A DNA stretch of 58,299 bases, from assembly GCA_037134755.1 (NCBI GenBank), contig JBAXLO010000001.1, forward strand, positions 1 through 58,299. Reading direction: 5' to 3'. The DNA comes from Bacteroidota bacterium. GTDB lineage: Bacteria > Bacteroidota > Bacteroidia > Bacteroidales > JACABE01. Shown here in pieces: positions 12,635 through 58,299 of the stretch. The notes under the pieces are model-generated. The model was given only the letters and a program-made list of their open reading frames with translations, did no database searches and was not told where the DNA came from. The first letter of the stretch is position 1, and the number at the start of each line of letters is the position of its first letter. Made by a program: the position numbers and the translations under genes.

Positions 12635-12844
12635 TAATGCAAATGTAAAGTAGGAGGTTTTGCTCAAATGTTGGTGTAATACAAATGTAAAGTAGGAGGT
12701 TTTGAGCCGAAACTGGTGTAATGCAAATGTAAATTTTGAGTGCAAAGGTAAAAGCTGGCTTAATACAAATGTAAAATTTAGGTGCAGATGTAAAAGTTGA
12801 TATAATGCAAATGTAAAATAAGAGTTTTTGAATCCGAGGAAAGC
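12635..12844. repeat. tandem array, 5 x 42 bp (TAATRCAAATGTAAA...)
   Basis: Unit starts at 12635, 12677, 12719, 12761 and 12803 are spaced exactly 42 bp apart. Each unit contains an internal half-repeat (TGCAAATGTAAA / TGCAAAGGTAAA). Confidence 0.9.
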
Positions 12845-13103
12845 TATTTTTTATAAAATAAATTCTAGATGCTTAAACAAGCTATATTTTTAAGTGCTTT
12901 TTACATATATTTTTAAATATAATGGTTAGTTTAGATAAAAAGAATCAATTTGTGTTAAAATAAGTGTATCATAATAGTACAAAATATATCTATTTTAGAA
13001 GTATTTTTAATTTTTATTCAACTATAATAGGTATTAGATGAGATGGTAGTATAATATTTTTAATTTTTATTTATTATTTTGTAATACAGAGCATTTTATT
13101 TTG

Positions 13104-13111
13104 TACATTTG
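13104..13111 (+). promoter_or_regulatory. putative -7 box (TACATTTG) for the 13257-21466 operon
   Basis: A TAnnTTTG match lies about 145 nt upstream of the ATG at 13257, which implies a long leader. Confidence 0.35.
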
Positions 13112-13256
13112 TCAACGAAAACACGAATATCTGACTAATCATTGGGACAAGGTATTGTTTATGGTGTAATGATATGATTTTTATCTATCTCTACCAAAAA
13201 AAAGCCGCCTGTTCGCCTTTTCTTAACAATAGTATTAATAAATTAATAATGTTCAT

Positions 13257-14222
13257 ATGAGCAGCAAACATTCGTTTTACATTACAAATTACTTTCTGAA
13301 TTATACCGTTAATTCCAGAAAAAAGATGGTGGACATAGTGGCATACTTTATGTCGGTAGTTAATCAAGGCATGCCAGATGTTGACCTACAAATAATCTTA
13401 GATAGGACTGATCCTCAGTTTACACTCTACAAGGCTAAATTTAAGACATGGAAACTCGCAAAAGAAACATATCAGAATGCAACTACGCTGATTGAGCAGT
13501 CATTCGGTCATTTACATTTAGATTTAGAAGCTGTTCATGGATTAGTTATAGCAGTTTATCCATCAAACTCTAACGAATATCAGTCTATATTTCGCGATGG
13601 ATTAGATATCTATCATACAGATTCTTATTATCAACGAATTCAACAATTAGGATATTTAAGCGACCGCTTAGGATTATACCTGCCTATGGCAACAGAAAAA
13701 ACTACGATTGCAGGCTTGTGTACTAGTATCTCAGCTCTTAGAGATAAACAACAACAGAAAGCAAAATCTTTAGTTGAAGCTTCTGATGATCTCGAATTGT
13801 GTAGAGTAGATATTGCTGATATGATGTATGGTAACGTTGGTTTATTAATGAATAAATTTCGTAAAACAAGAGATAAAATTCTTAGCTTCTTTAATTTGGA
13901 TTTATTATATGGAAGAGGACAAAAAGAAGTTGCTACAAAGACTTATGGTTTAAATGTTCCTGTTAATTCTTATGGAAAAACAGCAATACAGATAACTTCA
14001 AAAACTACTTTTGGATTTAATAACACAGGCAATGTAATGATGCAAGTTTATACAGCTTCTACACCAGATGCACCAGTACCTACAAATGCGTTAACTATTG
14101 ATGCAGATGTAGAAGTAAATGCAAAAGCTGATACATTAGGAGCAGTAACCAATACCTGGCTTATCGTTTATAATGCTGATGTTAATTTTTCAGGTTCAAT
14201 AGATATTACTGAAACCAACTAA
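13257..14222 (+). CDS. hypothetical protein, orphan helical-N / beta-rich-C family; first gene of the MELLYID/NYN operon
   Basis: 321-aa ORF with no signal peptide. The N-terminal two-thirds are predicted helical and the C-terminal ~100 aa are beta-rich (TYGLNVPVNSYGKTAIQITSKTTFGFNN...). Its layout resembles 25395..26309 and 27158..28090. An alternative start is M24, at 13326. Confidence 0.65.
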   Translation: MSSKHSFYITNYFLNYTVNSRKKMVDIVAYFMSVVNQGMPDVDLQIILDRTDPQFTLYKAKFKTWKLAKETYQNATTLIEQSFGHLHLDLEAVHGLVIAVYPSNSNEYQSIFRDGLDIYHTDSYYQRIQQLGYLSDRLGLYLPMATEKTTIAGLCTSISALRDKQQQKAKSLVEASDDLELCRVDIADMMYGNVGLLMNKFRKTRDKILSFFNLDLLYGRGQKEVATKTYGLNVPVNSYGKTAIQITSKTTFGFNNTGNVMMQVYTASTPDAPVPTNALTIDADVEVNAKADTLGAVTNTWLIVYNADVNFSGSIDITETN

Positions 14223-14245
14223 TACCTTTACTTAAGAATCCGGTT

Positions 14246-14280
14246 ATGTATATATTAGCCTCAAAAGCTAATATGTACAT
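14246..14280 (+). terminator. intra-operon hairpin (possible partial terminator or attenuator)
   Basis: ATGTATATATTAGC-CTCAAAA-GCTAATATGTACAT is a 14-bp stem with one mismatch. A TTTTT run follows 8 nt later. Confidence 0.45.
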
Positions 14281-14307
14281 TGCTGCATTTTTCAAATTCT
14301 TATCGTT

Positions 14308-15399
14308 ATGGAATTACTATATATTGATTTAATAACAAAAAATATTCAATGTGAATCTGAATATTATTATTTCATTGTAAACTATATAATAGGCAAAAAA
14401 ATTTCCTTACATTCAAATATAGGATTTTATAATTTCATTAATAAAAATAAAAAAAGAATTAGTTTATCTGATTTCATTAAATATTATGAAAGTTATTGTA
14501 TTTATTTTCATAAAGATAATAAAGAAGAACTTGATGTTGTCTTTAGCTATTGTGATGATTTTAAAATTTTTAATAAAGATTACAAAGCCTATTCAAAGAA
14601 GAAGAATTTAACAAAAGAACAATTAGTATTTATGAATTGCCATAATACTAACTACAATATGATAAAAGAAAAATTAATTGATATTTGCAAAAATAATATG
14701 ACATCATTAAATCTAATGGCCTATTCTGATTTAATAAATGATGATATAATTGAAACAAGTTTTTCATTATTCAAAAGAAATGGAAAAATTGATGATATTG
14801 AATTGAGTGAAATTATTTTTAATAATTTTTTATCAAAAGAAAAATTAGTTATAGCAGGAAGTTTCTATGAAAAAGTTATTGATTCTATGAATAAATATAA
14901 AGAAGAAAATGAGATAGAAGGAGAAAAATCTAATAAAATATTTTTGCCAGATTTACCATTATTGAAATTCCCTATATCAAGTGAAATATCAAAAGAGCAT
15001 TTGCAATTAATTAGATTACAATTTAATTCACAGATTACCATTTTGTTTGATAAAATACAAAACTATAGAATTAATGAATTGCAACATGAAATTAATGAAA
15101 CACTTGCAGAAAAATTATCTGTGTTTTACAAAACATTACATGAGGATATAGAAATTATTCAAAATAAAATAGATGAAAATATATTTTTTCAAAAAATAAT
15201 AAACTCAGATTCTATATATAAAACAGTAATAGTAAATTTGGGTATAGTTCCTTATTTTACTCTGGTATGTTTGTATTTTTCTCTAAAAGCAATTACTATA
15301 GAAAAATTTTTAGAATTAAGAAATAGATGTAATTACGAACTCGGAACTTTTACAGGTGATTTTTTTCTTTATTATGAAATAGAACCTAAAATAAATTAA
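14308..15399 (+). CDS. MELLYID-family paralogue 1 (hypothetical, no recognisable domain)
   Basis: 363 aa. Starts MELLYIDLITK..SEYYYFIVNYIIGKK and ends FFLYYEIEPKIN. Clear paralogy to the next four ORFs. Confidence 0.75.
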   Translation: MELLYIDLITKNIQCESEYYYFIVNYIIGKKISLHSNIGFYNFINKNKKRISLSDFIKYYESYCIYFHKDNKEELDVVFSYCDDFKIFNKDYKAYSKKKNLTKEQLVFMNCHNTNYNMIKEKLIDICKNNMTSLNLMAYSDLINDDIIETSFSLFKRNGKIDDIELSEIIFNNFLSKEKLVIAGSFYEKVIDSMNKYKEENEIEGEKSNKIFLPDLPLLKFPISSEISKEHLQLIRLQFNSQITILFDKIQNYRINELQHEINETLAEKLSVFYKTLHEDIEIIQNKIDENIFFQKIINSDSIYKTVIVNLGIVPYFTLVCLYFSLKAITIEKFLELRNRCNYELGTFTGDFFLYYEIEPKIN

Positions 15400-15483
15400 G
15401 AAGAAAATGAAATTGAATAAAGTTAGAAATATGAATGGATTTATTAAAAATACATTAATAATTAAAAACTAATTATTACAATT

Positions 15484-16593
15484 ATGGAATTGCTATATAT
15501 AGATTATATGAAAACGCAAAATCAATTTGATTCTGAATATTATTATTTTATTATAAATTATTTAATTGGTGAAAAGATTCAAATGCATTCTAACTTTGGA
15601 TTTTATATGCATGTTGTTAAAAATATTAATAAGTTAAGCAAATATGAACTTGTAGATTATCTTGAAAATTATATGATTCAAAGCACTTTACATACTCCTT
15701 GCGATTTAAAAGATTTTTTTGCTACAAAAGATATGTATAGTAGAACTAATAAGCTAGTTACAAAAATTTTAAAGCACGGTAAAATGCCAAAGATAGACTT
15801 TGAAATAGTGAAATCCTTTAACGATTTAATAGCAACAAATAAATCTGAATTACTAAGAATATGTAATGAATTATTAGAAAAGCAACATTTATTGCCTTAT
15901 GTTGATTTACTTGATAATGATATTTTAAAGACTTCTTTTTCTTTATATAATCGTGATGTAACTATAAAAGAAAAGGAAATTGGGGAAATTATATATAATA
16001 ACTTTAAAAGAAAAGATAGGCTTTTAGTTTTGGGAAGCATGATTGGTATGCAAATGGACTTGTTTTTAGTTGAAGATGGAATTGGGACCTCAAAAAATGA
16101 AGAAGACTTAGTAACTGTTGGATCTTCATGTTTATTAACAATTCCATGCTCAAAAAAATTAACAAAGGATAATCTTATTTTTATTAGAAAGCAATTCCAT
16201 GCAAAATTTGATTCTTTATTTGCCAAAATATATGATTTCCGATCAAAATTTCTTAAAAAAGAGTTAGATGATGACCTAATGATAGAATTTAATAATTTTA
16301 CTTCAGAAATAGAAAATGAATTGGAAATATTACAACTTGAAATAGACAACCATATCTATTTTCAGAAAATTAAAAATTCAGATCCTGATTATGTAAATAT
16401 AAGTATCAATTTGGGAGTTCTACCAATTGATTTAATTTTTATGGTTTATGTTACGTCAAATGTAATTTCATTTGATAAATACTTAGAATTAAGTATTAGA
16501 GAATATAATGAAATAGGTAAAGGTATGGGAGATATTTATCTTTATTATGAAATTGAACCAAAAATAAACGAAGAAGAAAATACAGAAGAATAA
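15484..16593 (+). CDS. MELLYID-family paralogue 2
   Basis: 369 aa. Contains MELLYIDYMK..SEYYYFIINYLIGEK, IPCS, QKIKNSDPDYVNISINLGVL and IYLYYEIEPKIN. Confidence 0.75.
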   Translation: MELLYIDYMKTQNQFDSEYYYFIINYLIGEKIQMHSNFGFYMHVVKNINKLSKYELVDYLENYMIQSTLHTPCDLKDFFATKDMYSRTNKLVTKILKHGKMPKIDFEIVKSFNDLIATNKSELLRICNELLEKQHLLPYVDLLDNDILKTSFSLYNRDVTIKEKEIGEIIYNNFKRKDRLLVLGSMIGMQMDLFLVEDGIGTSKNEEDLVTVGSSCLLTIPCSKKLTKDNLIFIRKQFHAKFDSLFAKIYDFRSKFLKKELDDDLMIEFNNFTSEIENELEILQLEIDNHIYFQKIKNSDPDYVNISINLGVLPIDLIFMVYVTSNVISFDKYLELSIREYNEIGKGMGDIYLYYEIEPKINEEENTEE

Positions 16594-16693
16594 AATTTTT
16601 AATTGCTTTTTAAATACACACATAAATTGTGTAAATACTTATTTATAAATTTTATTAGTTCAGATATTCATTAAAATAATTAATATTTAAGTT

Positions 16694-17800
16694 ATGGAAT
16701 TATTGTATATAAACGATGTTAAAGATGATAAACAACTTGATGAAGAGGTTTTTTACTTTATTGTTAATTACATTATAAGTGAAAATGTAACGATACATTC
16801 AAATGTTGGGTTTGGCTTAGAAATGTTTAAAAAGATTGATTGTTTTTCTGATGATGAAGTAATGAAGTATTTAGAAAGTTATTTTTTTATAATACAGCCC
16901 CAAATTACATCACGTTTATCTGAAGAACTTAAAAAAATTGATGGATTGAAGGAGTGTATGAAAACCTACAAACAATTAAAACATCGGAATCAATTACCTC
17001 CAGGACATTTCAAATATCTTCAGACATTAAAAACAAGGTATTTAGATTATCGGAAAACCTTCAAGGGGTTTTTGAATGATTATGTACGATTTTTGGGAAT
17101 ATATAAATATGTAGATTTATATGACGAAGTTATAATAAAAGCAAGCTATACCGACATTAATAGAGATTGGGAATTAATCGACCAGGAGCTTGGGGAAATA
17201 TTATATAACAATATTTCAAACCGAAAAAATCTAATATTACTTCATGATCTATCAAATTTAGAGGAATTTGACGCAAATAAAGAAGTTGATGAAGAACAAA
17301 AAGCCTTGCTTATCGAATTGTTTACATTGCATAAAATTCTATTAGTAACTATTCCATGTTCCGTTAATTTACAATTAAACGAACTAGTAGTTTTGAGACA
17401 AAGGTTTTTAAACAATTTTACTGAATTATTCTCAAGAATACAATTTTTTAGAAAAGATATTAATAAAATTGACACAGTTGAAACGTTAACAGAAAAATTA
17501 AATGAATTTAAATCTGAAATTAAAGATGATTTACAAAAAATACAAAACGAAATAAATACAAATCTATACTTCCTGAAAATTAAAAATTCAGATTCAGATT
17601 ACACAAATGTTACTATTAATCTTGGTATATTATTTAATGTAACTATATTTAATTATTTCTCTGTGAGAAATTTGATATCGCCTGATAAATATTCAGAATT
17701 AGAATATAGGTTAAATAATAAATTAAATGAAAAGTATTATGATTTATTTATATACTATAAAATTGACTTAGATATAAATAAATATAAAATTAGCGAATAA
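16694..17800 (+). CDS. MELLYID-family paralogue 3
   Basis: 368 aa. Contains MELLYINDVK, IPCS, LKIKNSDSDYTNVTINLGIL and LFIYYKIDLDIN. Confidence 0.75.
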   Translation: MELLYINDVKDDKQLDEEVFYFIVNYIISENVTIHSNVGFGLEMFKKIDCFSDDEVMKYLESYFFIIQPQITSRLSEELKKIDGLKECMKTYKQLKHRNQLPPGHFKYLQTLKTRYLDYRKTFKGFLNDYVRFLGIYKYVDLYDEVIIKASYTDINRDWELIDQELGEILYNNISNRKNLILLHDLSNLEEFDANKEVDEEQKALLIELFTLHKILLVTIPCSVNLQLNELVVLRQRFLNNFTELFSRIQFFRKDINKIDTVETLTEKLNEFKSEIKDDLQKIQNEINTNLYFLKIKNSDSDYTNVTINLGILFNVTIFNYFSVRNLISPDKYSELEYRLNNKLNEKYYDLFIYYKIDLDINKYKISE

Positions 17801-17822
17801 TAATTAAAAAACACATATAATT

Positions 17823-18908
17823 ATGGAATTGCTATATGTAGATAATATTACTAAAGAGTTTCAATATGAGAACGAATACTATTATTTTGTATTTAATTAT
17901 ATAATTGGAAAAAGAGTTCATTTGCATTCTAATGTGAGTTTTTGCTTTCATGTTATTAAAAATATAAGTAAATTTAAAGAGAATGAGATTCTGGATTTAT
18001 ATGAGATTAACAGCTTCCACAAAAATGTTGAAGAAGGTAGAGATTTGGAGGAGGTAACAAAAGGATATGAGCTTATTAAAAAACAATCTCCATTTGTAAA
18101 ACAACTAAAGAAACAAAAAAGATTAAATAAAGAAAGATTTGGCTTAGTACAAACATTTAATCAAGTTTTAACTTCAAGTAGAGATATTTTAAGAGAGTCA
18201 TGTAAAGATGACTTAGAAGCTATGGATTTATTGCCTTATATTGATTTAATTGATGAAGGTGTTATTATAACAAGTTATTCAACCTATAATAAAGTAGGAA
18301 AGATTGATGATTGTGAAATTGGAGAGAAATTGTTACAAACATATATTAATAGAGATAAAATATTAGTTTTAGGTAGTATATTGCCTATTTTGGCTAAACC
18401 AATATTACCAGAAGATATAAAAAGAATTCCTCCTTTGTTTTCAAGGAAAGTTTGTTTAGTAGGTATTCCACTTGTTTATATTCCTTGTTCAATAGGTTTT
18501 AAAAAAGACTCTCTTGTTTTATTACGTAAACAATTTATGAGTAAGTTTGATAAATTATTGGAGAAAATTCAATCTTTTAGGATTGAAATAAATACGTTGA
18601 CATTTAACAAAGAGATTAAAAATAAGATACTAGCATTTCAGGAATTATTAAATCAGGATTTAACGATGCTTCAAGATGAAATTAATACTAATATTTATTT
18701 CCAAAATGTAATTAATTGTGGAAAAGAGTATAATAATGTGTTTTTAATACTAGGCATACTTCAAAATGAATATATAGGTTTGTTTCATATAAGTAATTAC
18801 GCATTAAGTAAAGAAAAACATTTGGAATCAAATGAAGTAATAAAAAATAAAATTGGGAAAAACAAAAGTGAAGTCTTTCTCTATTATAATATAGAACAGA
18901 ATAGATAG
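17823..18908 (+). CDS. MELLYID-family paralogue 4
   Basis: 361 aa. Contains MELLYVDNITK..NEYYYFVFNYIIGKR, IPCS and VFLYYNIEQNR. Confidence 0.75.
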   Translation: MELLYVDNITKEFQYENEYYYFVFNYIIGKRVHLHSNVSFCFHVIKNISKFKENEILDLYEINSFHKNVEEGRDLEEVTKGYELIKKQSPFVKQLKKQKRLNKERFGLVQTFNQVLTSSRDILRESCKDDLEAMDLLPYIDLIDEGVIITSYSTYNKVGKIDDCEIGEKLLQTYINRDKILVLGSILPILAKPILPEDIKRIPPLFSRKVCLVGIPLVYIPCSIGFKKDSLVLLRKQFMSKFDKLLEKIQSFRIEINTLTFNKEIKNKILAFQELLNQDLTMLQDEINTNIYFQNVINCGKEYNNVFLILGILQNEYIGLFHISNYALSKEKHLESNEVIKNKIGKNKSEVFLYYNIEQNR

Positions 18909-18926
18909 ATTAATAATCTTAATAAT

Positions 18927-20042
18927 ATGAATTTAACTTTTATAAATAGAACAACTTCCAAAATATTACCAATGTCTGAGAACATTTATTTTTATTGTTC
19001 TTATATTATTGCTGATACGTCTTCTTATCATGCAGTGTTTTCGATGATGGAAGATTTTAGTGACTTGAAAATAGAAAGTAATAATGAAGAGTTTATTTTG
19101 GAGCTTTATCTTTTATTTAATAAAGATAATATTAATTGCGATGTGCTTAGGAGTGAAGCTAATATTTTGTTTTCTTGGTGTCAGAAACATAAGAGTGTAA
19201 ATCATAAGACAAAAGAGATGATTATTAATTATCAAAGAAAAAATCTTTTACTTAGAAAGATGTTGAATTTTATAGTAGATTTCTATCAAAACATGACAAG
19301 TAGTTTTGGGTTTGCAAAAGATCAATTAGGATTAATAGATGGGAAGATTGCTTCTTGTATTAGAAATATTTATGAAAGTGAAGATTATTTAGATGAACAT
19401 ACAGAAGATTCTTTAATAACATTGATTCCAGAATACTTATTTAGAAAAGAGAACTATTTTGTAATAGAAACTCTTATAGAGGATATTCTTAAGCCTTTTT
19501 ATATAAAAGATCCTGACCATTCAATTAATATTATGAATGAAAATGAATTTGTATGTATGCCATTATTTAAGATACCTTATTTTAGATTCTTTAACTCGAA
19601 TAGTTTGGTGTCGATAAGGAATACTTTAAAATCGAGTATGGGTGTTCTTTCAGATATTATTAATGATTTCCAAGATAATCTTAAAGAATTTGATTTTGAT
19701 AATAATGCAATAGATGTTATAAATAGTTATGTGCCGAAAGTACAATTAATATCTACTAATATACAGGAGCAAATAGACACTCAAGTTTATATTAAGAAAG
19801 AAATGAATTCAGGTTCAATGTTTCTTAATATGCAAATATATCTTGGTATATGTAAAATCAAATCAATACCTGAGTATTTTAGTGAAGCCGAAATAATAAA
19901 GCCTTTTATAATTGATTCAATTAATAAAAATATAGAAATAAAAGGTAATTTAAATAAAAGTCAGGTGTTCATTTATATGAAACCTGAGGAACAATCAATA
20001 CATGAATTCTTAGTATCTTATAAAAATAATTTAACATGTTAA
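18927..20042 (+). CDS. MELLYID-family paralogue 5, divergent member
   Basis: 371 aa. The N-terminus has diverged (MNLTFINRTTSK..ENIYFYCSYIIAD), but the family blocks are retained: LFKIPYF, LVSIRNTL, QVYIKKEMNSGSMFLNMQIYLGI, VFIYMKPEE. Confidence 0.7.
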   Translation: MNLTFINRTTSKILPMSENIYFYCSYIIADTSSYHAVFSMMEDFSDLKIESNNEEFILELYLLFNKDNINCDVLRSEANILFSWCQKHKSVNHKTKEMIINYQRKNLLLRKMLNFIVDFYQNMTSSFGFAKDQLGLIDGKIASCIRNIYESEDYLDEHTEDSLITLIPEYLFRKENYFVIETLIEDILKPFYIKDPDHSINIMNENEFVCMPLFKIPYFRFFNSNSLVSIRNTLKSSMGVLSDIINDFQDNLKEFDFDNNAIDVINSYVPKVQLISTNIQEQIDTQVYIKKEMNSGSMFLNMQIYLGICKIKSIPEYFSEAEIIKPFIIDSINKNIEIKGNLNKSQVFIYMKPEEQSIHEFLVSYKNNLTC

Positions 20043-21466
20043 AACAAAAAATCGAACATTTTGAGGTGTCCGGCTTATCCGGATTTAAGTCTGTGGAATT
20101 AATAAAGATTAAAGACTTTGTTAAGATCTCCGACATATTAAAGGTGTATCATGTCTTCATAACTGAAAATAAAGTTGATGAAGAAATTAACAGAGCCTTC
20201 AATATTTTAAACAATGATATTATTTATAATATCAATTCAAATGGATTTATTTCTGTTGATGATTTTGATGATGCAGATGATAAAGGCTTTGAGAACGCTG
20301 AGGATTATGCTGAAGCAAAAAAAGGAGGCTACCATAACTATAAAGAGTTTGTGGAATTCCGTCAGTCGGGGGTGATTGATAGAAATGTGTATAAAAAAGC
20401 ACAGAAGTTAGGTTTCGTTGATAACTTTGATGACTTTAAAAAGAAATTAGAGCTAAATAAGAAGACGATACCCGAAGATTTTGATCTTAGTGAATATGAT
20501 AATTCATTAAAGTTGTTTCAATTTGCAAACGATCGTGGGTTTAAAGATTATGGTGATTTTGCTAAAGGCTTCTTTCTAGGCTTTACAGAGAAAATTATGA
20601 TGGATGAAGCAAAAGACAAAGGCTTTACTTATGCTAAAGATTATATTGGAGCCGTTTCTATGGGTTTTGATAATATTAGAGAGTTTCAGGAAGCAACTCA
20701 TCTTAATATTAAGAATAAGATTGAATTTAAAATGTTTGATAAGTTGAGGAGGATCTCTAAAAACATCCATGGTTTTGATGGAGCTCAGCTTATTGAAGCT
20801 CTTAAGATATATGAGAATGGCAAGCGTTTATCTATAAAGAAAATTTCGGAACTTATTGAACTGGAAAAAGAAAAGTGTAAACAATGCACTAGTGATAAAG
20901 GTATCAAAGAGCTACCTGAATGGTACGATCTTAAATTAAATACTAATGCTGATATCGAACAATTCTTGAAAACATGCACTGAGCTTAAAGATTATGGCTT
21001 TTATGATGCAGATGGTGAGTTTTTTGAAGTCTCTCGTCTTTCAGATACAACTATTTATATTGATGGTAGTAATGTTGCTTATGCTGATAATGGAAATAAA
21101 AAAGAAAACAAACCACAATATCTTAATATTATAACTTTAGCTCAACATTTAAAAGAACTTCGCTACAAAGATATCATTGTTATAGTAGATGCTAGTCTTA
21201 ATCATACAGTTACTGACCCTTTGTATTTAAGTACATTAAAGCAGAGTGCTCAATATCTGGAAGCTCCGGGTAATACTTCAGCTGATGAGTTCCTAATAGA
21301 AAACGCTAAGAAAAATAAATGTTACATAGTTACTAATGATACCTTCAGAGATTGGAAAGCTAAAGATAGCTGGATCTTTGAAAACATCGATCGTATCAGA
21401 GTTCCTTTCCTTAGAAACAGTAACGGTACGTTTAGTACTCCTTCGCTTGACTTAATAAAGGATTAG
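20036..21466 (+). CDS. Zc3h12a-like NYN-domain ribonuclease with N-terminal GF-repeat region
   Basis: The C-terminal ~130 aa read IYIDGSNVAY...IIVIVDASL...SADEFLIENAKKNKCYIVTNDTFRDW. This matches the MCPIP1/Zc3h12a NYN pattern (DGSNVA ... DD/DE ... SND...RD). The start overlaps the stop of the preceding gene (ATGTTAA). Confidence 0.8.
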   Translation: MLKQKIEHFEVSGLSGFKSVELIKIKDFVKISDILKVYHVFITENKVDEEINRAFNILNNDIIYNINSNGFISVDDFDDADDKGFENAEDYAEAKKGGYHNYKEFVEFRQSGVIDRNVYKKAQKLGFVDNFDDFKKKLELNKKTIPEDFDLSEYDNSLKLFQFANDRGFKDYGDFAKGFFLGFTEKIMMDEAKDKGFTYAKDYIGAVSMGFDNIREFQEATHLNIKNKIEFKMFDKLRRISKNIHGFDGAQLIEALKIYENGKRLSIKKISELIELEKEKCKQCTSDKGIKELPEWYDLKLNTNADIEQFLKTCTELKDYGFYDADGEFFEVSRLSDTTIYIDGSNVAYADNGNKKENKPQYLNIITLAQHLKELRYKDIIVIVDASLNHTVTDPLYLSTLKQSAQYLEAPGNTSADEFLIENAKKNKCYIVTNDTFRDWKAKDSWIFENIDRIRVPFLRNSNGTFSTPSLDLIKD

Positions 21467-28090: not shown

Positions 28091-28111
28091 TTTATAAAAC
28101 AAATGCCAATC

Positions 28112-28875: not shown

Positions 28876-28935
28876 ATTCTAATCTTTTGCTTATACATTT
28901 TATTAAATATTTTATTACAATGTATTTTTAACACA

Positions 28936-46800: not shown

Positions 46801-47970
46801 CATAATTATGGAACTACAGCTATGAATGTAACTGGATGGAAAATATTTAAACCCGCAACCGGTGATTCTTATACTTTTCCTAGTAGTACTATTATTTCAG
46901 CGAATGGTTATATGGTCTTTTGTGAAGACACTGATTATTTCGCAACTACTTATTTACCTACCGTCATCACAAATAAAAAAGGTCCTATGAATTTTGGATT
47001 TAATGATAACGGTGAAGAAATACAAATACAAAACTCTCAAGGTGGGATAATTCTAGATTTTACATACAAATCTGATTCTACATGGCCGGGTTGTGCAGCT
47101 GGTTATGGACGTACATTAGAGCTACAAAGTAACACTCTTTTTATAAACGATCCAGCTAATTGGGCTTGTGGTTGTATGTTAGGTTCTCCTGGAGTTGCTC
47201 ATTCTCCATGTACAGAAGCAGTTTTATTTAATGAAATTAATTACAATTCTTCCGCTAACTATCCTATGAATGACTGGGTAGAATTGCATAACAGGAGTAA
47301 TACAGCTATTGATGTATCTAATTGGGTTTTTAAAGATGGTGTTGATACACATTCGTTCATTATCCCAAAAAGAATTGCTAATGGAAGTACTATTCCTCCT
47401 TATGGTTATCTAGTTTTGGTTAAAGATACAGTAAGTTTTAATACTGTATGGCCTGGTATTACTAATAGATTTGGTGATTTAGGTTTTGGTTTATCATCAA
47501 GTGGAGATGTTCTCAGACTTTATAATTCAACAGGTAAGATTTATCAGTCTTTATTATATAGTCCTGAATGGGGTGCAAATGGAGATGGAACAACTTTAGA
47601 GTTTAATAACAGTCTTACAGATGCAAATCCTAATATGAGTATTGGTTGGTTTCCAGGTTGTATAAAAGGCTCACCGGGATATCCTTTTGCACCCAATTGT
47701 GATGCTGGAATAAAAGAATATACTAGTGAAACTTATAAGGTTTATCCTAATCCTGCTACAAATGATGTGAATATTGAATTGAATACTGTACATAATGATG
47801 ATATTTATTTTCAATTATACGATTTAGAAGGTCGTATGTTAAATGAAGTATCGATGAAAGGTAAAACAAAGATTACTGTAAGTAGAAATGGTTTACAAAG
47901 TGGTATTTATATATACAGAATAAGTACTAATAATTCAGTTGAGGGTGCGGGTAAGCTGATTTTTGAATAA
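43873..47970 (+). CDS. T9SS-secreted lamin-tail-domain (x3) / CotH kinase-family protein, copy 1
   Basis: 1365 aa. LTD signature VINEVQSAN...SDWIELYNTS..VNLLGYGLTD. CHB_HEX_C-like HYTLNGNIPKITDKLYTGPITIDSTVVLRARAF. CotH core FVVRNAGSDN..CHFRDE...YLNGKYWGVYHLHEKSDKYYLAENYG. Two further LTDs. CTD is VYPNPATNDVNIEL...GIYIYRI. Confidence 0.85.
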   Translation: MRKIYLFILLNLLFVITTKAQVVINEVQSANANTIADESGSYSDWIELYNTSTTTSVNLLGYGLTDGSNLFKWVFPSIDLPHEQHLVVFASGTPNYTYMTHWETAVNANDSWLFKVANASIPSTWSTSSYLPDTSWKQKKGPFGIGYSADSTTVPQCKTFYIRRTFNVSATAYADILKVALSIDWNDGFVAYLNGNEIARANVLGNPPSYDTSATTSNTPAYLTGDPPTNYIFDIASSFLVSGDNILAIEVHNISATNPSLFVMPYLSVGIHDFQSFYNPTPTSFGLQNVYLHTNFKINDNETISLTSPGATPTTDSQNIGFVYADASIARIPDGGDWCYTSTATPMLPNVGPCGQGFTAQPQASVPAGFYTTTLHDSLKCSSANTAIHYTLNGNIPKITDKLYTGPITIDSTVVLRARAFSTVPNGLLPGQPFTATYLLNQPATTCPIVSLSLDSMSLWDWNTGIYVLGPNASPNRPFWGANFWQNWNRPGHVEYFTSTDSLKFSMDAFLGMNGNYSRDKDQKSFAITTRSSLDTNSINYQIFPDKNITDFKRFVVRNAGSDNLICHFRDECLQTMFKSSYNDWEANRPCDVYLNGKYWGVYHLHEKSDKYYLAENYGVNPDSVDLIKNFAAQDGNMNAFTIMQNYLGNTSLDLSTTANYTTAQSYWDMDNLKDYYIGEIFVENQDWITKQWTAISPAHFEYWVNNIKLWRPQQTNAKWRFNLHDIDQGGFPANILAINYNHTNVNFLSLAISPGSVINNNLYSVILRNFLKNADFKNKFINRYADLLNTVLLTNRTLIVADTFVNRLSPEIQREINRWGLSDPTSRCHNITEWNTNISDFKTFLTQRPDSARKEILSYFNLSGNVTITIDVANKSQGKVQISTLTPDTATLPWHGIYFNGNNVPITPIPNPGYVFDYWEANHSFSVNNYTGFHFMNFTQSDTMRAHFKAAPTITISEINYHSDPTRDTKDWIELHNYGTTAMNVTGWKIFKPATGDSYTFPSSTIISANGYMVFCEDTDYFATTYLPTVITNKKGPMNFGFNDNGEEIQIQNSQGGIILDFTYKSDSTWPGCAAGYGRTLELQSNTLFINDPANWACGCMLGSPGVAHSPCTEAVLFNEINYNSSANYPMNDWVELHNRSNTAIDVSNWVFKDGVDTHSFIIPKRIANGSTIPPYGYLVLVKDTVSFNTVWPGITNRFGDLGFGLSSSGDVLRLYNSTGKIYQSLLYSPEWGANGDGTTLEFNNSLTDANPNMSIGWFPGCIKGSPGYPFAPNCDAGIKEYTSETYKVYPNPATNDVNIELNTVHNDDIYFQLYDLEGRMLNEVSMKGKTKITVSRNGLQSGIYIYRISTNNSVEGAGKLIFE

Positions 47971-48209: not shown

Positions 48210-51200
48210 ATGAGAAAGATTTTTCTTTTTATTCTTATTAATCTTCTTTTAGGTTTAACAACGAAAGCACAGGTTGTTTTAAATGAGATTCAGGCAGAAA
48301 ACGCCACTACTATTTATAATGACGTAGATAGTTCGAATTCTGATTGGATTGAACTATATAACAAAGGAACAGCCTCTGTCAATTTATTAGGTTATGGTTT
48401 GTCGGATAATACTACACTTTATAAATGGGTGTTTCCAAGTATTGACCTACCATCACATAAACACCTATTAGTATTTGCTTCAGGTGATAATATTACTACT
48501 TATATGAATCATTGGGAAATAGGTGTTAGTGCTAATGATACTTGGACTTATAAAGTGGCAACTTCCAGCACACCTACAACCTGGAATACTTCCTCTTATT
48601 TACCCGATACTTCGTGGAAACAGAAGATTGGTCCTATTGGTCATGGATATTCAGCTGATTCAACCACAATTCCTCAATGTAATACTTTATATATGAGGAG
48701 GACTTTTAATGTAACAGCTTCTTCAATCGCTGATATGATGAAAGCTGCACTAGTTATTGATTATGATGATGGTTTTGTTGCTTATTTAAATGGCTACGAA
48801 ATCGCAAGAGCTAACATTACAGGAACTCCTACTTACAATTTAGCTGCTGATGGTACCCATGTGCCTGCATATATGACGGGAGACCTCACTCCAAATTTTA
48901 TGTTAGATAGTGCTACTTTCTTTAGTCATTTGTTACCGGGAGATAATATTTTGGCAATTGAAGTCCACAATGTAAGTACTACAGATCCTACATTGTTTGC
49001 AATGCCATATCTAGCATTTGGCATCCATGATTTTCAAACGTTCTTTAGTCCTGTTCCATCTTGGTTTTATCTTCAAAATAAGTATCTTCATACAAATTTT
49101 AAAATTAACGATAACGAAACAATTTCTTTAACTCCTCCAGGTACTTCTGCTGCCTCTGATTTTATTAATATTGGGTATCTTTATACTGATGCTTCCATTG
49201 CACGTATTCCTGATGGAAATAATATTGGCGGTGTTTATCAAGGCTGGTGTTATACTGAAAGTCCTTCTCCAAATTTACCAAATCCTATGGCTGGTTGTGG
49301 CATGGGGTTTACTGCTAAGCCTCAATCTTCAGTGCCTGCCGGATTTTATACCACTGCAATACATGATAGTCTTAAATGCTCATCACCTAATACTGTAATA
49401 TATTACACATTGAACGGGAATATGCCTAAGGCAACTGATAAATTATATACTGGACCTATTACTATTGATAGTACAACAGTTTTAAGAGCACGTGCTTTTT
49501 CAACAGGAATTGGGACACTACTTCCCGGACAAACGTTTACAGCTACTTATTTTATTAATGAACCTTCAACAATTCCAATAGTTTCTTTAAGTACTGATTC
49601 GATGTCATTATGGGATTGGAATACCGGTATATATGTAATGGGACCTCATGCTGACAGTATAAATCCTCCAAACTATGGAGCTAACTTCTGGCAAAACTGG
49701 AATAAAGAAGCACATGCAGAGTATTTTTTAAGACCTTCAGATAATAATATATTTAGTTTGGATGCATTTATTTCAATCAACGGAAACTGGTCCAGAGCTT
49801 ATGATCAAAAGAGTTTTGGTGTTGAAACTAAATCTTCATTAGATACTAATACTATTAATTATCAACTCTTCCCTAATAAAAACATTACTAATTTTCAAAG
49901 GTTTGTTGTTCGTGATGCAGGTACTGATAATCTTTTCTGTCATTTCAGAGATGAACTGCTTCAAAAGATGTTTTCGAATACTAATGTTGGATGGGAAGCT
50001 TCTCGCCCATGCAATTTGTTTTTAAATGGTAAGTATTGGGGTTTATATCATCTACTCGAAAAGAGTGATAAATATTATCTTGCAGAAAATTATGGTGTAA
50101 ATCCAGATAGTGTCGATTTAATAAAGATTTTTGCTGTTCAGGATGGTAATAATAATGCCTATAATAGTTTAGTATCTACTTTTACTAACATAAGTGACTT
50201 TTCAACAAGTGCTAATTATGCCATTTTTAAAAGCCTTTGGAATATGGATAATTTTATGGATTATTATATTGATGAGATTTGTATTGAGAATATGGACTGG
50301 ATTTCTAAAAGATATTATAGTAATATTCCAGGGTATTTATATTGGGTAACAAATGTGAAACTTTGGAGAGAACAGAAACCAAACGCTATATGGAGATATG
50401 AAATGCATGATGTAGATCAGGGAGCTAAACCTTTTAGTATGATAAATGGAGGTGGTCCCGATCATATTAATTTCCTATCTCAAGCAATTAGTCCAGGGGG
50501 GAACATTAACAATAATATATATTCAGTTATGTTAAGGAAGTTAATGCAGAATTCTGATTTTAAAAACAAGTTTATAAACCGTTATGCAGATATATTAAAT
50601 ACTACCTTTTTACCAAGTCGTACTTTGCCAATTGCAGACTCTTTAAAAAATATAATGGAACCTGAAATGCAAAGAGAAATAACAAGATGGGCAACATCTT
50701 CTTCCTTATCAAGAAATATGACTGAATGGCACAGTAATGTTACTAACTTTAGAACATTCTTATCTCAACGTCCCGATTCTGCAAGAGTTGAAATTCTTTC
50801 TTATTTTAACTTATTGGGAAATGTTAATATCACTGTTGATGTTGCTAATAAAGCTCAAGGAAAAGTTCAGATAAGTACTCTAACTCCAGATACTGCTATC
50901 TTACCTTGGCACGGTATTTATTTTAATGGTAATAATGTGCCTATAACACCTGTACCAAATCCAGGATATGTATTTGATTATTGGGAGGCAAATCATTCTT
51001 TTTCATCAAATAATTATACCGGTTATCATTTTATGAATTTTACTCAAAGTGATACTATGAGAGCTCATTTTAAAGTAGCACCATCAATAACTATTTCTGA
51101 ATTGAATTATCATTCAGATCCTACTCGCGACACTAAGGATTGGATCGAATTACATAACTATGGTACAACAGCAATGAACATCACCGGTTGGGAAATATAT

Positions 51201-52343
51201 AAACCTGCTACGGGTGATACTTATACTATCCCAAGTGGAACAGTTATTACAGCAAACGGTTACATGGTCTTTTGTGAAGATACTGATTATTTTGCAACAT
51301 CTTATCCTAACACAATCACCAATAAAAGAGGGCCGATGAACTTTGGTTTTAATGATTACGGAGAAGAAATTCAAATACAAAATGCTCAGGGCGGTATTAT
51401 TTTAGATCTTACCTATAGTTCTGATTCTACTATTTGGCCAGGTTGTGCAGCAGGGTATGGTCGTACTTTGGAATTGCAAAGCAATACTCTTTTTATAAAT
51501 GATCCTTCTAATTGGGCATGTGGTTGTATGTTAGGTTCACCCGGAGCTGCTCATTCACCTTGTACAGAAACTGTTTTATTTAATGAAATTAATTATAATT
51601 CTTCAACTACTTATCCTATGAATGATTGGGTAGAATTACATAATAAAAGTAATACTGCTATAGATGTGTCAAATTGGGTACTTAAAGATGGTGTAGATAC
51701 CCATTCATTTGTAATCCCTAAAAGAATTGCAAATGGAAGTACTATTCCTCCAAATGGTTATTTAGTTATTGTACGAGATACAACTAGTTTTAATGCAGTA
51801 TGGTCTGGGATTACTAATAGATTGGGCAATTTAAGTTTTGGCTATTCTTCAAGTGGAGATGCTATCAGACTATATAATTCAACAGGTAAAATATATCAAT
51901 CAATGGTATATAAGTCCGAATGGGGAGCTAATGGAAATGGTGCAACATTAGAGTACAATCATAGTATTTCGGATGCAAATCCAAATTTAAGTACTGGATG
52001 GTTTGAAGGATGTTTAGGAGGTTCTCCGGGATATGCACATATCGTACCTTGTCCCACAGTAGGCTCAATGACAACAGGTATAAAAGAATTTTCAAACAAC
52101 GAAAACTATAGGGTTTATCCTAATCCTGCAACAAATGATGTGAATATTGAATTGAATACTGTACATAATGATGATATTTATTTTCAATTATACGATTTAG
52201 AAGGTCGTATATTAAATGAAGTATCGATGAAAGGTAAAACAAGGATCACAATAAGTAGAAATGGTATACAAAGTGGTATCTATATATTTAGGATAATAAC
52301 AAATCAATCAGTAACCGGTGCCGGTAAATTGATATTTGAATAG
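48210..52343 (+). CDS. T9SS-secreted lamin-tail-domain / CotH kinase-family protein, copy 2 (tandem paralogue)
   Basis: 1377 aa, collinear with copy 1 over its full length, with the same domain order. Confidence 0.85.
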   Translation: MRKIFLFILINLLLGLTTKAQVVLNEIQAENATTIYNDVDSSNSDWIELYNKGTASVNLLGYGLSDNTTLYKWVFPSIDLPSHKHLLVFASGDNITTYMNHWEIGVSANDTWTYKVATSSTPTTWNTSSYLPDTSWKQKIGPIGHGYSADSTTIPQCNTLYMRRTFNVTASSIADMMKAALVIDYDDGFVAYLNGYEIARANITGTPTYNLAADGTHVPAYMTGDLTPNFMLDSATFFSHLLPGDNILAIEVHNVSTTDPTLFAMPYLAFGIHDFQTFFSPVPSWFYLQNKYLHTNFKINDNETISLTPPGTSAASDFINIGYLYTDASIARIPDGNNIGGVYQGWCYTESPSPNLPNPMAGCGMGFTAKPQSSVPAGFYTTAIHDSLKCSSPNTVIYYTLNGNMPKATDKLYTGPITIDSTTVLRARAFSTGIGTLLPGQTFTATYFINEPSTIPIVSLSTDSMSLWDWNTGIYVMGPHADSINPPNYGANFWQNWNKEAHAEYFLRPSDNNIFSLDAFISINGNWSRAYDQKSFGVETKSSLDTNTINYQLFPNKNITNFQRFVVRDAGTDNLFCHFRDELLQKMFSNTNVGWEASRPCNLFLNGKYWGLYHLLEKSDKYYLAENYGVNPDSVDLIKIFAVQDGNNNAYNSLVSTFTNISDFSTSANYAIFKSLWNMDNFMDYYIDEICIENMDWISKRYYSNIPGYLYWVTNVKLWREQKPNAIWRYEMHDVDQGAKPFSMINGGGPDHINFLSQAISPGGNINNNIYSVMLRKLMQNSDFKNKFINRYADILNTTFLPSRTLPIADSLKNIMEPEMQREITRWATSSSLSRNMTEWHSNVTNFRTFLSQRPDSARVEILSYFNLLGNVNITVDVANKAQGKVQISTLTPDTAILPWHGIYFNGNNVPITPVPNPGYVFDYWEANHSFSSNNYTGYHFMNFTQSDTMRAHFKVAPSITISELNYHSDPTRDTKDWIELHNYGTTAMNITGWEIYKPATGDTYTIPSGTVITANGYMVFCEDTDYFATSYPNTITNKRGPMNFGFNDYGEEIQIQNAQGGIILDLTYSSDSTIWPGCAAGYGRTLELQSNTLFINDPSNWACGCMLGSPGAAHSPCTETVLFNEINYNSSTTYPMNDWVELHNKSNTAIDVSNWVLKDGVDTHSFVIPKRIANGSTIPPNGYLVIVRDTTSFNAVWSGITNRLGNLSFGYSSSGDAIRLYNSTGKIYQSMVYKSEWGANGNGATLEYNHSISDANPNLSTGWFEGCLGGSPGYAHIVPCPTVGSMTTGIKEFSNNENYRVYPNPATNDVNIELNTVHNDDIYFQLYDLEGRILNEVSMKGKTRITISRNGIQSGIYIFRIITNQSVTGAGKLIFE

Positions 52344-52419: not shown

Positions 52420-52590
52420 TTATATTTAAGTCCACAAATAGTTGAATTATCATAGAAAATAAATTCCATTTATCTATTGACTTTCTTTCAATATAATTTA
52501 AAAATACGCATAGAAATAAAACTCCAAGGTGTCATCAATAAGCAAATATCTCATTCAAAACCATTCAAAATCCTTAAAAAGCTGCTTGAG

Positions 52591-52653
52591 GCAGGTGCAA
52601 CGCTGCATTCGGTAAATGCAACGCTGCACTTGTCGAATACAAGGCTGCATTCG
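52591..52653. repeat. tandem array, 3 x 21 bp (GCAGGTGCAACGCTGCATTCG)
   Basis: Units at 52591, 52612 and 52633, with degenerate flanking units. Confidence 0.85.
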
Positions 52654-52824
52654 TTCCTTGTGGGTTTGTTCTTGATTTTATCAAAAATTAGACTTATAAA
52701 TACACATCAAGTCATTAATATTAAATACTTTATTTGTAATGTCAAAGGATTGCATTTTAATTTAGCCTTTATCAATTACCATAAACTCATGGTTTAAATG
52801 AATACTAGAATCGTTGTTATAAAT

Positions 52825-53883: not shown

Positions 53884-53967
53884 TAACGAAGTGTTCAACC
53901 GATAGTACAGAGTTGTTAACATGTTGTACGAAGTTGTCAACATGTTGTACAGAGTTGTCAGGAAGCA
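53884..53967. repeat. tandem array, 4 x 21 bp (GTACAGAGTTGTCAACATGTT), bracketed by a 9-bp inverted repeat
   Basis: Units at 53884 (degenerate), 53905, 53926 and 53947. TTTTCTGCT (53871-53879) and AGCAGAAAA (53964-53972) bracket the array. Confidence 0.85.
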
Positions 53968-57414: not shown

Positions 57415-57423
57415 CATAACACA

Positions 57424-58080
57424 ATGAAGAAAATACTTCTTATCCTATTACTAACATTTATAGTATATCCATTTACAAAGTCTTACGCTCAGGTTGTAGA
57501 TAAAAAAGCTATTGCAATAGTTGATCAGCTTGCAGCTAAAATGAAATCGTATCCTACTCTAAAGATTGACTTTACCTATACTTTGGAGAACAAACAGAAG
57601 AAGATTAATCAAAGTAAGAAAGGTACTATTATTATTAAAAGTGATAAATATTCGCTAAATGTAGCAGGACAAAAGATTATATCGGATGGTAAAACTACCT
57701 GGACTTATATTCCTGATGCTAACGAAGTGCAGATTAATTCAGTTAATCCTAATGAAGATGAAGGTATTAATTTAACTAAGCTACTTGCTACCTATAGTAA
57801 GAACTTTCGCCCAAAGCTTATCAAAGAGGAAAGAGTAAGTAATGTAAATACGCAGGTTGTTGATTTAGTTCCTTTAAAAACAAAAGCTTACTATAAGGTA
57901 CGTTTGATTATCGATAAAGATAAAACTCAGATAATAAGTACACAGATATTTAATAAGAATGAAAGTACTTTTAAATATAAAGTAGATAAGTTTCAATCAA
58001 ATCCTAAGGTTGTAGATAGTGATTTTACTTTTAAGAAAACAGATTATCCCGCCAATGTCGAGATTAACGATATGAGGTAA
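57424..58080 (+). CDS. lolA: LolA-like outer-membrane lipoprotein carrier protein
   Basis: 218 aa with a signal peptide. It lies immediately downstream of ftsK, a synteny conserved in Bacteroidota. The LolA-like beta-rich composition supports the call, but sequence recognition is moderate. Confidence 0.65.
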   Translation: MKKILLILLLTFIVYPFTKSYAQVVDKKAIAIVDQLAAKMKSYPTLKIDFTYTLENKQKKINQSKKGTIIIKSDKYSLNVAGQKIISDGKTTWTYIPDANEVQINSVNPNEDEGINLTKLLATYSKNFRPKLIKEERVSNVNTQVVDLVPLKTKAYYKVRLIIDKDKTQIISTQIFNKNESTFKYKVDKFQSNPKVVDSDFTFKKTDYPANVEINDMR

Positions 58081-58084
58081 TCTA

Positions 58085-58119
58085 AAAGAGACCGCTTAGA
58101 ATCTTAGCGGTCTCTTTTT
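58085..58119 (+). terminator. terminator hairpin built on the REP core (CCGCTTAG...CTTAGCGG)
   Basis: AAAAGAGACCGCTTAGAATCTTAGCGGTCTCTTTTT. Confidence 0.75.
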
Positions 58120-58177
58120 GATTATAAACACTTTGTAATTAAATCTTAAAATATTATACTAAATTTAGATAAAATTA

Positions 58178-58299
58178 TCGCAGTCACGAAGCAAACTGTC
58201 GCAGTCACGAAGCAAACTGTCGCAGTCACGAAGCAAACTGTCGTAGTCACGAAGCAAACTGTCGCAGTCACGAAGCAAACTGTCGTAGTCACGAAGCAA
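58178..58299. repeat. tandem array, at least 5.8 x 21 bp (TCGCAGTCACGAAGCAAACTG), running off the window end
   Basis: Units at 58178, 58199, 58220, 58241, 58262 and 58283. The only variation is C/T at one position (TCGCAG vs TCGTAG). Confidence 0.95.

Follow-up and report, generated by a model that had tools for sequence, protein, structure and literature searches.

Tandem arrays of the window

The DNA analysed here, called the window throughout, is the 58,299-nt stretch of contig JBAXLO010000001.1 from a Bacteroidota bacterium (assembly GCA_037134755.1); its metagenome contig is NODE_536 of ENA ERZ4224321. It has a GC content of about 30%, and many of its genes encode cargo proteins of the type IX secretion system (T9SS) with Por_Secre_tail domains. 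The window carries tandem arrays with a period of 21 or 42 bp, which we labelled A to F and which are the subject of this study.

The arrays were detected with Tandem Repeats Finder (TRF). Array A (12624-12819, no strand) was found as two overlapping rows with a period of 42 bp and 79-81% matches; it is non-coding and consists of alternating 21-bp half-units. Array B has two blocks. The left block (26671-26885, plus strand) is non-coding and holds about 10 copies of a 21-bp unit with 66-77% matches, each with the core TTTGTTTYGTTTATA and a variable spacer. The right block (26886-27011, minus strand) has about 6 degenerate 21-bp units, in which this core is on the opposite strand; the part scored by TRF is 26888-26941 (21 bp, 2.5 copies), where the units are inverted with respect to the left block. 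Array C (42414-42649, plus strand) contains 10.8 units of 21 bp that encode DFIDLDN heptads inside an open reading frame (ORF), and array D (52596-52653, plus strand) 2.8 units of 21 bp that encode NATLHSV heptads. Arrays E (53905-53960, 2.7 units of 21 bp) and F (58178-58299, 5.8 units of 21 bp with 97% matches, cut by the end of the window) are non-coding and have no strand. The initial annotation of this DNA had reported tandem arrays with a 21- or 42-bp period at these places, and TRF reproduced all of them, each within about 21 nt (about one unit) of the reported coordinates.

The period was also examined independently of TRF by scanning the window lag by lag for self-identity of at least 60% over 126 nt. 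Only the lags 21 and 42 yielded segments, and the lags 17-20 and 22-25 yielded none; the coincidence of the periods in the window is therefore real. The units had been described as mutually unrelated, which had to be corrected: C and D are one homologous element, and the unit of E shares the 12-nt core TACAGAGTTGTC with variants of the D array at 52596 from other samples. Apart from this 12-nt match, unit similarity between loci was mostly limited to known homologues. Scans of Rfam and for tRNAs gave no match.

The 21-bp period in related genomes

Eighty loci were retrieved through ftsK and not selected for arrays; like the other loci and contigs compared with the window, they are referred to by L-numbers. 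The FtsK of the window is 73-74% identical to that of lake and groundwater metagenome-assembled genomes (MAGs) labelled Bacteroidales bacterium and about 57% identical to that of Sphingobacteriales, which places the source among uncultured Bacteroidota of fresh water. The 21 nearest MAG loci (371 kb) were used as the test set and 1.09 Mb of Sphingobacteriales loci as the control. In the related MAG loci, 10 of the 33 arrays with a period of at least 8 bp had the period 21 and 2 had the period 42. Period 21 accounted for 10 of the 15 arrays with periods of 17-25 bp (binomial p 5e-7), where several rows come from single long arrays and the independent evidence amounts to about 7-8 loci in 5 genomes (L019, L028, L029, L034 and L038). 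The Sphingobacteriales control showed period 21 in only 5 of 63 arrays and no excess (Fisher p 0.001). The initial annotation had proposed a look at the period distribution of the complete genome; in the loci examined here the distribution has an excess of 21/42 bp, and the lineage-wide excess of 21-bp arrays is a solid observation.

Other periods (7, 9, 15 and 19 bp) occur in the same lineage too. At L034 (16543-16927) a 21-bp array of 10.3 copies, with units 93% identical, directly adjoins a 19-bp array of 8.3 copies; 21 bp is therefore preferred in the clade and not obligatory. The Sphingobacteriales loci L040-L098 (1.09 Mb, TRF score of at least 40) have very common 7-bp (39) and 14-bp (21) arrays, which hints at a different preferred register there, in multiples of 7. 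A 231-bp repeat (11 x 21) in L014 was rejected as a 21-bp array, as it shows no internal 21-bp periodicity and the number is a coincidence.

Arrays C and D in a probable family of small proteins

Array C lies in a small ORF at 42260-42892 on the plus strand. The 210-residue product has a conserved N-terminus, the heptads, a hydrophobic stretch and a conserved C-terminus that ends with YFS before the stop. The box TATATTTG at 42191-42198 (plus strand), 62 nt upstream of the ORF, is what we take, from the established consensus, to be a Bacteroidota-type -7 promoter box. Just upstream of it, at 42126-42170, the window has 4.4 copies of the 10-bp repeat TGAAAATAAA, which is also present in L007 and L016 and is conserved with the module. 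Array D lies in a truncated copy of the same family (52477-52797, plus strand; 106 residues), which starts with TTG, stops early and lacks a partner gene. As noted in the initial annotation, two arrays share conserved flanking boxes: they flank C and D at 42312/52517 and 42772/52746, each exactly twice in the whole window, where chance would give 0. The frame of both ORFs relative to the boxes is identical, and only arrays of the C/D type sit in frames that are open for at least 115 nt upstream and at least 140 nt downstream. The view that all arrays are intergenic thus applies to A, B, E and F, which are non-coding, and fails for C and D, which are inside ORFs.

Relatives were collected with a profile search of 5.8 billion proteins and an exhaustive hidden Markov model search of 1.84 billion cluster representatives. 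The first gave 13 close relatives, every one from uncultured Bacteroidota metagenomes, and the second a further 8 distant full-length members of 150-220 residues. Common to all members are the N-terminus MxKTPATVENxFQRxIGxKFxGVxTK and the C-terminus YNVKGxHFNLxFxNY...KHQYWxxxxYF[S/N], with the stop following at the same place, and all have a short hydrophobic, membrane-like stretch after the repeats. The middle part consists of 3-14 heptads and its sequence is wholly different between members, with the termini kept: the heptads are NATLHSV, DFIDLDN, VKGTLLS, NDSLSFD, KVRTVLP, ETNVVRH, SRLQAKV, NARKMLS or ARERVFF, depending on the member. Leu, Val or Ile recurs every 7 residues in the repeats. 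The termini are conserved at the protein level among relatives that are less than 50% identical.

The variable sites in the tail of the ORF are in excess at codon position 3 (32/33/53), and the leader shows no codon-position bias (27/21/25). It is thus the tail, together with the open frames and the distant homologues, that supports the coding assignment. Leader, array and tail form a single open frame in all copies but L008, which has a stop, and L100, which has no leader. In L008 a TAG occurs where the leader meets the array, and exactly 21 nt of the leader are missing. At positions 1-140 of L008 (reverse strand) the leader of the D-type array is replaced by GC-rich sequence with the look of a piece of a gene for a ZnuA-like metal-binding protein; this change is either a real rearrangement or due to a chimeric contig. 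The TAG in L008 and the loss of the leader in L100 therefore indicate that some copies of the family are decaying.

Scans of the array ORF against Pfam, NCBIfam, PHROG and PADLOC gave no informative match, and the left box had 0 exact matches in 185k species genomes. The family very probably represents a real protein. As far as can be read from sequence, we consider it solid that a small protein family with a hypervariable heptad middle is present here that was previously undescribed. Arrays C and D are predicted to be coding, and a heptad-coding constraint would explain the period of these two. The heptad constraint put forward in the initial annotation does not apply to A, B, E and F, none of which has an open frame that continues past its repeats.

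The units of the D and L010 types contain a dyad. The D-type unit carries AATGCA ACGC TGCATT (6+4+6) and the L010-type unit AAAGGA ACGC TCCTTT, so that the two differ at two positions per arm that compensate each other. Across 65 distinct units of these types, 77% of the cells pair in the 6+4+6 register, compared with 19-45% for shifted partners. The dyad could serve either to promote slippage, as a hairpin, or to bind a dimer. It is missing from C, and dyad symmetry as a general property of the units was rejected, being significant in 3 of 19 arrays (L010, L028 and L029).

Array D follows directly after the second of two tandem duplicate genes (43873-47970 and 48210-52343), which are 71% identical and encode T9SS cargo of about 1370 residues with CotH-kinase and lamin-tail domains. 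L011 is without the C module, and its orthologous empty site is rearranged. At 1279-1356 of L011, upstream of the CotH gene and where the C module is absent, there is a different 21-bp array (CGGAATCGAGTAAGACGTCTT, 3.7 copies) with a 10-bp palindrome.

The partner gene and the array-linked orphan genes

The array ORF is followed by a partner gene at 42963-43571 (plus strand). The AlphaFold model of its 202-residue product (predicted local distance difference test score 87) shows a hydrophobic helix at the N-terminus, then a helical domain and, at the C-terminus, an FN3 domain. The gene normally follows the array ORF and was found there in six independent contexts: the window, L010/L014 (between recR and fba), L016, L099, L100 and the P0040 contig. 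Its family has about 30 members, nearly all of 202-204 residues, zero of them annotated and mostly on short contigs. When the window was compared with L010, the last 140 nt or so of the array ORF and 70 nt past its stop were 75-88% identical, and the partner gene was 60% identical in DNA and 47% in protein. The conserved tail region of the ORF showed no consensus RNA structure (-0.17 kcal/mol). The module of ORF and partner gene had no phage, plasmid, Pfam, NCBIfam, PHROG or PADLOC match, and a phage or plasmid origin of the partner gene was dropped as no match was obtained. In L016 (924-1114), L099 (5810-6000) and L100 (5549-5742) a conserved insert of about 120 nt lies between the array ORF and the 202-residue gene. 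It carries inverted repeats (GTCATTGC...GCAATGAC; GTAATC...GATTAC), is not in the window or L010 copies and may be a small mobile or regulatory hairpin element.

Array A, array B (twice) and array C are each located upstream of an unannotated gene. Downstream of A is an orphan gene without a family (13257-14222, plus strand, 321 residues), with a promoter-like box, TACATTTG, at 13104-13111 between the two. Array B is placed between two divergent genes, 25395-26309 (minus strand, 304 residues) and 27158-28090 (plus strand, 310 residues); the product of the latter has a helical N-domain and a transthyretin-like beta-sandwich. These two are 24% identical and the only detectable paralogues among the array-linked orphans. 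The initial annotation had assigned the genes behind four arrays to one orphan family. Only the one paralogue pair was confirmed: profile comparison found no wider relation, with hhalign probabilities of 0.3% and 0.1%, and a single family was rejected since no relation was obtained between the 202-residue family, the 25395/27158 family and the 13257-14222 gene. Two of the models share only their architecture, a helical N-domain and a C-terminal beta-sandwich, and the type of sandwich differs (FN3 versus transthyretin-like). Fold searches returned generic FN3 and transthyretin-like matches only, and no match was obtained for the helical domains. The orphan genes, scanned against Pfam, NCBIfam, PHROG and PADLOC, likewise gave nothing informative.

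Non-coding arrays

Open frames never run past arrays A, B, E and F, and none of the six frames is open in the MAG arrays of L038, L028 and L029. Remnants of leader or tail were not detected beside A, B, E and F, either in DNA (z <= 2.6) or with the protein profile. The -7 promoter consensus of Bacteroidota is TAnnTTTG. Array F lies 51 bp, E 134 bp and A 285 bp upstream of such a box, and B begins 313 bp from the box that serves its left gene. A, B, E and F are non-coding minisatellites located 50-310 bp upstream of Bacteroidota-type promoter boxes.

In array A a 15-bp core, TAATGCAAATGTAAA, recurs every 42 bp; on the minus strand the core carries a TAnnTTTG box about once per 42 bp, six in all. 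Array E is flanked by a 10-bp inverted repeat (ATTTTCTGCT/AGCAGAAAAT).

The cassette of array B, between the paralogues at 25395-26309 and 27158-28090, was also found in another species (L017, array at 9500-9705), where the flanking proteins are 47% identical. The order in L017 is about 10 direct units, then units of the opposite orientation and then a RAYT-like gene (RAYT, tyrosine transposase associated with repetitive extragenic palindromes, REP). In both species the information is in a core of about 10 bp, TGTTTTGTTT, and the other 11 bp or so vary; no ORF in array B is conserved between the window and L017. The orientation of the core is identical when it is read from either flanking gene. 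The B region is therefore an inverted duplication of a gene with its upstream 21-bp array, with the gene at 25395-26309 in the left arm.

The divergent region upstream of ftsK in L028 and L029 holds 13-15 phased units. Of these units only the palindromic core (AACTTTTG..CAAAAGTT) is conserved, and across 300 bp its offset varies by no more than +/-1 nt. That the units remain in phase after diverging to about 60% identity argues for a constraint on spacing. A core, a free spacer, strict phase and conservation across species were found together in B (window and L017) and in L028/L029, and the existence of conserved phased non-coding arrays is a solid result.

Turnover of the units

The comparison of orthologous arrays across strains, which the initial annotation had suggested, revealed whole-unit changes as well as the full replacement of units. 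The E arrays of the window and L011 differ by exactly one 21-bp unit, L011 having one fewer, and E is more diverged than its flanks. In three assemblies from the population of the window, array D counts 2.8 units; two others have 11.8 and 12.8. In 6 contigs of the population of the window, array A always has the same length. Array F continues in L001 (10755-11154), where it ends in degenerate units with a GTCG anchor, and has 4.1, 9.1 or more than 12 units across assemblies; copy numbers of near-identical units may be wrong in short-read assemblies, and L001 has a scaffold gap there, whereas the indel of E and the diverged arrays of D can be relied on. Fast whole-unit dynamics are solidly observed.

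The flanks of the F locus are 93.8% identical between L011 and the window over 5.6 kb. The unit is (ATAAAATATACTTTAGTAAAG)x9.7 in L011 and (TCGCAGTCACGAAGCAAACTG)n in the window, which is a complete replacement. The window array has degenerate end units, e.g. TCGCTTTTACTAAAGGGGATG, one of which matches the L011 unit at 13/21 positions (p ~0.02). These sequences fit a heterogeneous ancestral array of 21-bp units, with different variants of it amplified in the two lineages. Such a lineage-specific amplification would mean that the period is inherited within the locus while the sequence turns over. At the same position, after lolA, L019 has a 42-bp array of 7 units.

Comparison with known systems

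The closest known element is BrickBuilt of Porphyromonas gingivalis, a minisatellite or miniature inverted-repeat transposable element of head-to-tail 23-nt units without spacers and with a conserved leader and tail (Klein et al. 2015, PMC4596501). It has 1-23 units per copy and 19 copies with the same unit sequence, some of them without one or both flanks, and it lies near T9SS cargo genes (PMC4596501). According to that study it is strictly confined to intergenic DNA, is not translated and has small inverted repeats at its ends; annotation pipelines nonetheless predict hypothetical ORFs that run across it (PMC4596501). The arrays of the window resemble it in being from Bacteroidota, in their units of about two helical turns and in the absence of spacers; leader and tail were found for C and D only and not for A, B, E and F. 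They differ in the unit of 21 nt and in the units of C, D, L010 and the distant members being wholly different. Moreover, the leader, array and tail of C/D form a conserved ORF that travels with the 202-residue gene.

The C/D family also resembles envelope proteins with stalks. Bacterial envelope proteins have heptad or coiled-coil stalks encoded by variable number tandem repeats (VNTRs), where in-frame repeats change the stalk length next to a membrane anchor. A run of xxTLQSx heptads with a membrane anchor was seen in the unrelated 774-residue protein P0050. The conserved frame that extends well past the array was found for the C/D family and not for A, B, E and F. Different from the known stalks, the family has only 150-220 residues and no Pfam, NCBIfam, PHROG or PADLOC match, and its heptads are replaced wholesale with the termini kept.

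For the non-coding arrays, iterons and LytTR sites were compared on spacing only. Plasmid iterons are usually 22 bp long and lie beside a rep gene at the origin; sites of LytTR-type regulators are 9-bp direct repeats with 12-bp spacers, in pairs. In both, differing sequences have one common spacing because this places the bound proteins on one face of the DNA. The arrays share with them the differing sequences, the spacing of about two turns and, in B and L028/L029, a core with a free spacer. Unlike iterons, they have a chromosomal context (ftsK, lolA, sugar genes), and no Rep domain was found in the scans of the window; unlike LytTR sites, they occur in runs of 10-15 instead of pairs, and the window has no LytTR gene. 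The pneumococcal BOX element, boxA-boxB(n)-boxC, has conserved ends and a variable number of internal tandem units as well; it is non-coding, and its boxB has 45 bp and one sequence. Clustered regularly interspaced short palindromic repeats (CRISPR) are likewise regularly spaced short repeats. The initial annotation had excluded them, which is borne out: the units here abut without spacers and are too short, no cas genes or Cas domains were found in the ORFs scanned with Pfam and PADLOC, and Rfam gave no match. An origin of the arrays from REPs or bacterial interspersed mosaic elements with RAYTs was rejected, as no array contains the CCGCTAAGCG-type palindromes of the RAYT-like genes of the window.

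Other repeats and genes

Two RAYT-like genes for IS200-like Y1 transposases of 197 residues each are present at 377-970 (minus strand) and 28282-28875 (plus strand) and are 72% identical. Their flanks (about 285-375, 1000-1100, 28105-28265 and 28935-29095) contain GC-rich REP-like palindromes, CCGCTAAGCG...CGCTTAGCGG and CTCGCTTATCGACTTCGGTCGATTAGCGA. A third RAYT-like copy follows the array B cassette in L017 (11209-11802), with an 84-bp repeat at 10972-11142. Between the first RAYT-like gene and the next gene, at 1290-1450 of the window, is a 41-bp repeat (2.4 copies) with nested palindromes (GGGGAAGCAAAACAG..CTGTTTTGCTTCCCC), which does not belong to the 21/42-bp class.

Perfect (AATTACG)x4 heptamer blocks occur at gene boundaries in several loci: in the window at 37865-37892, 22 nt upstream of the start of a PKD-domain T9SS cargo gene, in L010 at 18815-18837 and in L017 at 7421-7449, 7506-7533, 7967-7994 and 12116-12187. 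Five tandem paralogues (14308-20042, 22-36% identity) encode an unannotated protein of about 365 residues and are followed by a gene (20036-21466) for a protein with a C-terminal NYN/Zc3h12a-like RNase domain. The region 14308-21466 has the lowest GC content of the window (22-25%), and its genes gave no defence-system match. An overlapping pair of small genes lies at 10336-11002; Pfam matches of the same contig identify the two as a toxin-antitoxin pair of a nucleotidyltransferase and a HepT-like (HEPN) protein.

Discussion

The initial annotation had proposed that the 21-bp period is non-random and has a common cause. The first part stands, as the excess is real and extends to related genomes; a single cause is not what we favour. 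We tentatively favour, without calling it probable, a composite explanation with coding heptads in C/D and non-coding minisatellites under helical-phase selection elsewhere. In C and D each 21-bp unit would correspond to one heptad of a variable stalk in a new small membrane-like protein. The 21 bp would be kept because the frame would survive only changes by multiples of three and because the stalk consists of heptads. The non-coding arrays A, B, E and F would gain and lose whole units, either by slipped-strand mispairing or by unequal recombination. Variant units would be amplified and replace older ones, the period being inherited within the locus. The helical repeat of DNA is 10.5 bp, and 21 bp are two turns. 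Across loci, 21 bp may be favoured as the smallest whole number of base pairs that gives whole helical turns. Arrays of this period could change their length, or carry one protein site per unit, and stay on one face of the DNA.

The old arrays match what such a constraint predicts, with a conserved core of about 10 bp, a free spacer of about 11 bp and a strict phase without indels. The binding of a protein at every second helical turn, as proposed in the initial annotation, agrees with B, L017 and L028/L029 and only poorly with F, where the unit was replaced. Since common descent is unsupported, the heptads fail for the non-coding arrays and a mutational register has no known basis, selection on helical phase remains. 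We infer this selection, and with it binding proteins and any effect on transcription.

Several points weigh against the composite explanation. Two causes for one number are unparsimonious. Helical phasing would also permit units of 10-11 and 31-32 bp, and the latter are absent; moreover, bacterial DNA in vivo is usually taken to be nearer to 11 bp per turn, as in the 22 bp of iterons and the 23 of BrickBuilt. Domain scans of the window found no binding protein and no LytTR or other regulator gene, and the complete replacement of the F unit argues against sequence-specific binding there. The compensated dyad of the D/L010 units points to a constraint at the level of the nucleic acid even in the coding class. 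Outside the window, the independent sample is only about 7-8 loci in 5 genomes, and near-identical units may be mis-assembled in their copy number in short-read metagenomes.

As an alternative, all arrays might descend from one mobile, BrickBuilt-like minisatellite element, here the C/D module, that lost its leader and tail and left its period behind. That C and D are two copies of one element, with D truncated and L100 lacking the leader, speaks for such a descent, as does the presence of the module in at least 6 different genomic contexts. E and the D variants have the 12-nt core in common, a terminal unit of F matches the L010 unit at 13/21 positions (p ~0.01-0.02), the turnover seen at locus F is quick enough to erase similarity, and BrickBuilt copies without leader and tail are known. 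However, the flanks of A, B, E and F resemble the leader and tail neither in DNA (z <= 2.6) nor in the protein profile, and B is a conserved cis element with a core of its own that was kept across species with its flanking genes. The arrays in L028/L029, L019 and L034 have no remnants of the family; the arrays show no link to a transposase or to terminal inverted repeats, and the boundaries of an element are not definable. We therefore regard common descent of all arrays as unlikely.

More doubtful still is a 21-bp "register" system, in which a protein would polymerise per two turns on any sequence, or the non-coding arrays would be silent stores of cassettes. The units of such stores would be exchanged by gene conversion with the heptad-coding arrays and so diversify the stalk, and the occurrence of the E unit as a variant inside D-type coding arrays hints at this form.

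A mutational register, a cause of the kind that the initial annotation had also considered, would be a lineage-specific process of replication, repair or recombination that creates or extends 21-nt duplications in any sequence. It would agree with an excess that is present in the related MAGs and not in Sphingobacteriales, that affects coding and non-coding DNA and unrelated units alike and that includes very young arrays (F with 97%, L034 with 93%). We know of no bacterial process with a 21-nt register, however, and the periods of 9, 15, 19 and 7 bp are present in the same lineage. A purely mutational cause would also leave unexplained that core and phase are kept under constraint in the old arrays. 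On balance we hold it to be improbable.

That all arrays are coding heptads or fresh relics of them is very unlikely, even though C and D are predicted to be coding, 21 bp are 7 codons and E resembles a D variant. No open frame passes A, B, E or F, the arrays in L038, L028 and L029 are closed in six frames, B has no ORF conserved across species, and no signal of the N- or C-terminus of the family was found near A, B, E and F. For A and B this reading is largely refuted.

The arrays could also act as RNA, either as rows of hairpins that titrate an RNA-binding protein in the manner of CsrB or as sources of small RNAs of about 21 nt. The D/L010 units can form a 6-bp stem with a 4-nt ACGC loop, 77% paired and with two compensatory swaps, and C lies downstream of a promoter box. 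But C has no hairpin, the dyad is significant in 3 of 19 arrays only, Rfam gave no match and the conserved tail has no consensus structure. A, E and F are located upstream and not downstream of the mapped promoter boxes, and an RNA function of the arrays appears highly improbable.

Chance or an assembly artefact such as k = 21 de Bruijn cycles, suggested by the several short-read metagenome assemblies among the sources and by the scaffold gap in one array copy, can practically be dismissed, since the same arrays occur in SPAdes, MEGAHIT, JGI and Logan assemblies of different samples, diverged units (66-80% identity) are impossible as k-mer cycles, and the excess in the MAGs and the lag scan speak against chance.

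Our literature searches turned up neither a 21-bp preference in Bacteroidota nor any bacterial description of one minisatellite period favoured clade-wide across unrelated sequences, coding and non-coding. The preference offers a clean test of whether helical phasing shapes the evolution of regulatory DNA in bacteria. The arrays break short-read assemblies, so that many members of the family are on contigs of 1-3 kb, and they are mis-annotated as intergenic or as spurious ORFs. Until now the VNTR-encoded family of putative heptad stalks with its FN3 partner was unannotated. In conclusion, the family is a candidate for a length-variable or phase-variable envelope module in abundant lake bacteria.

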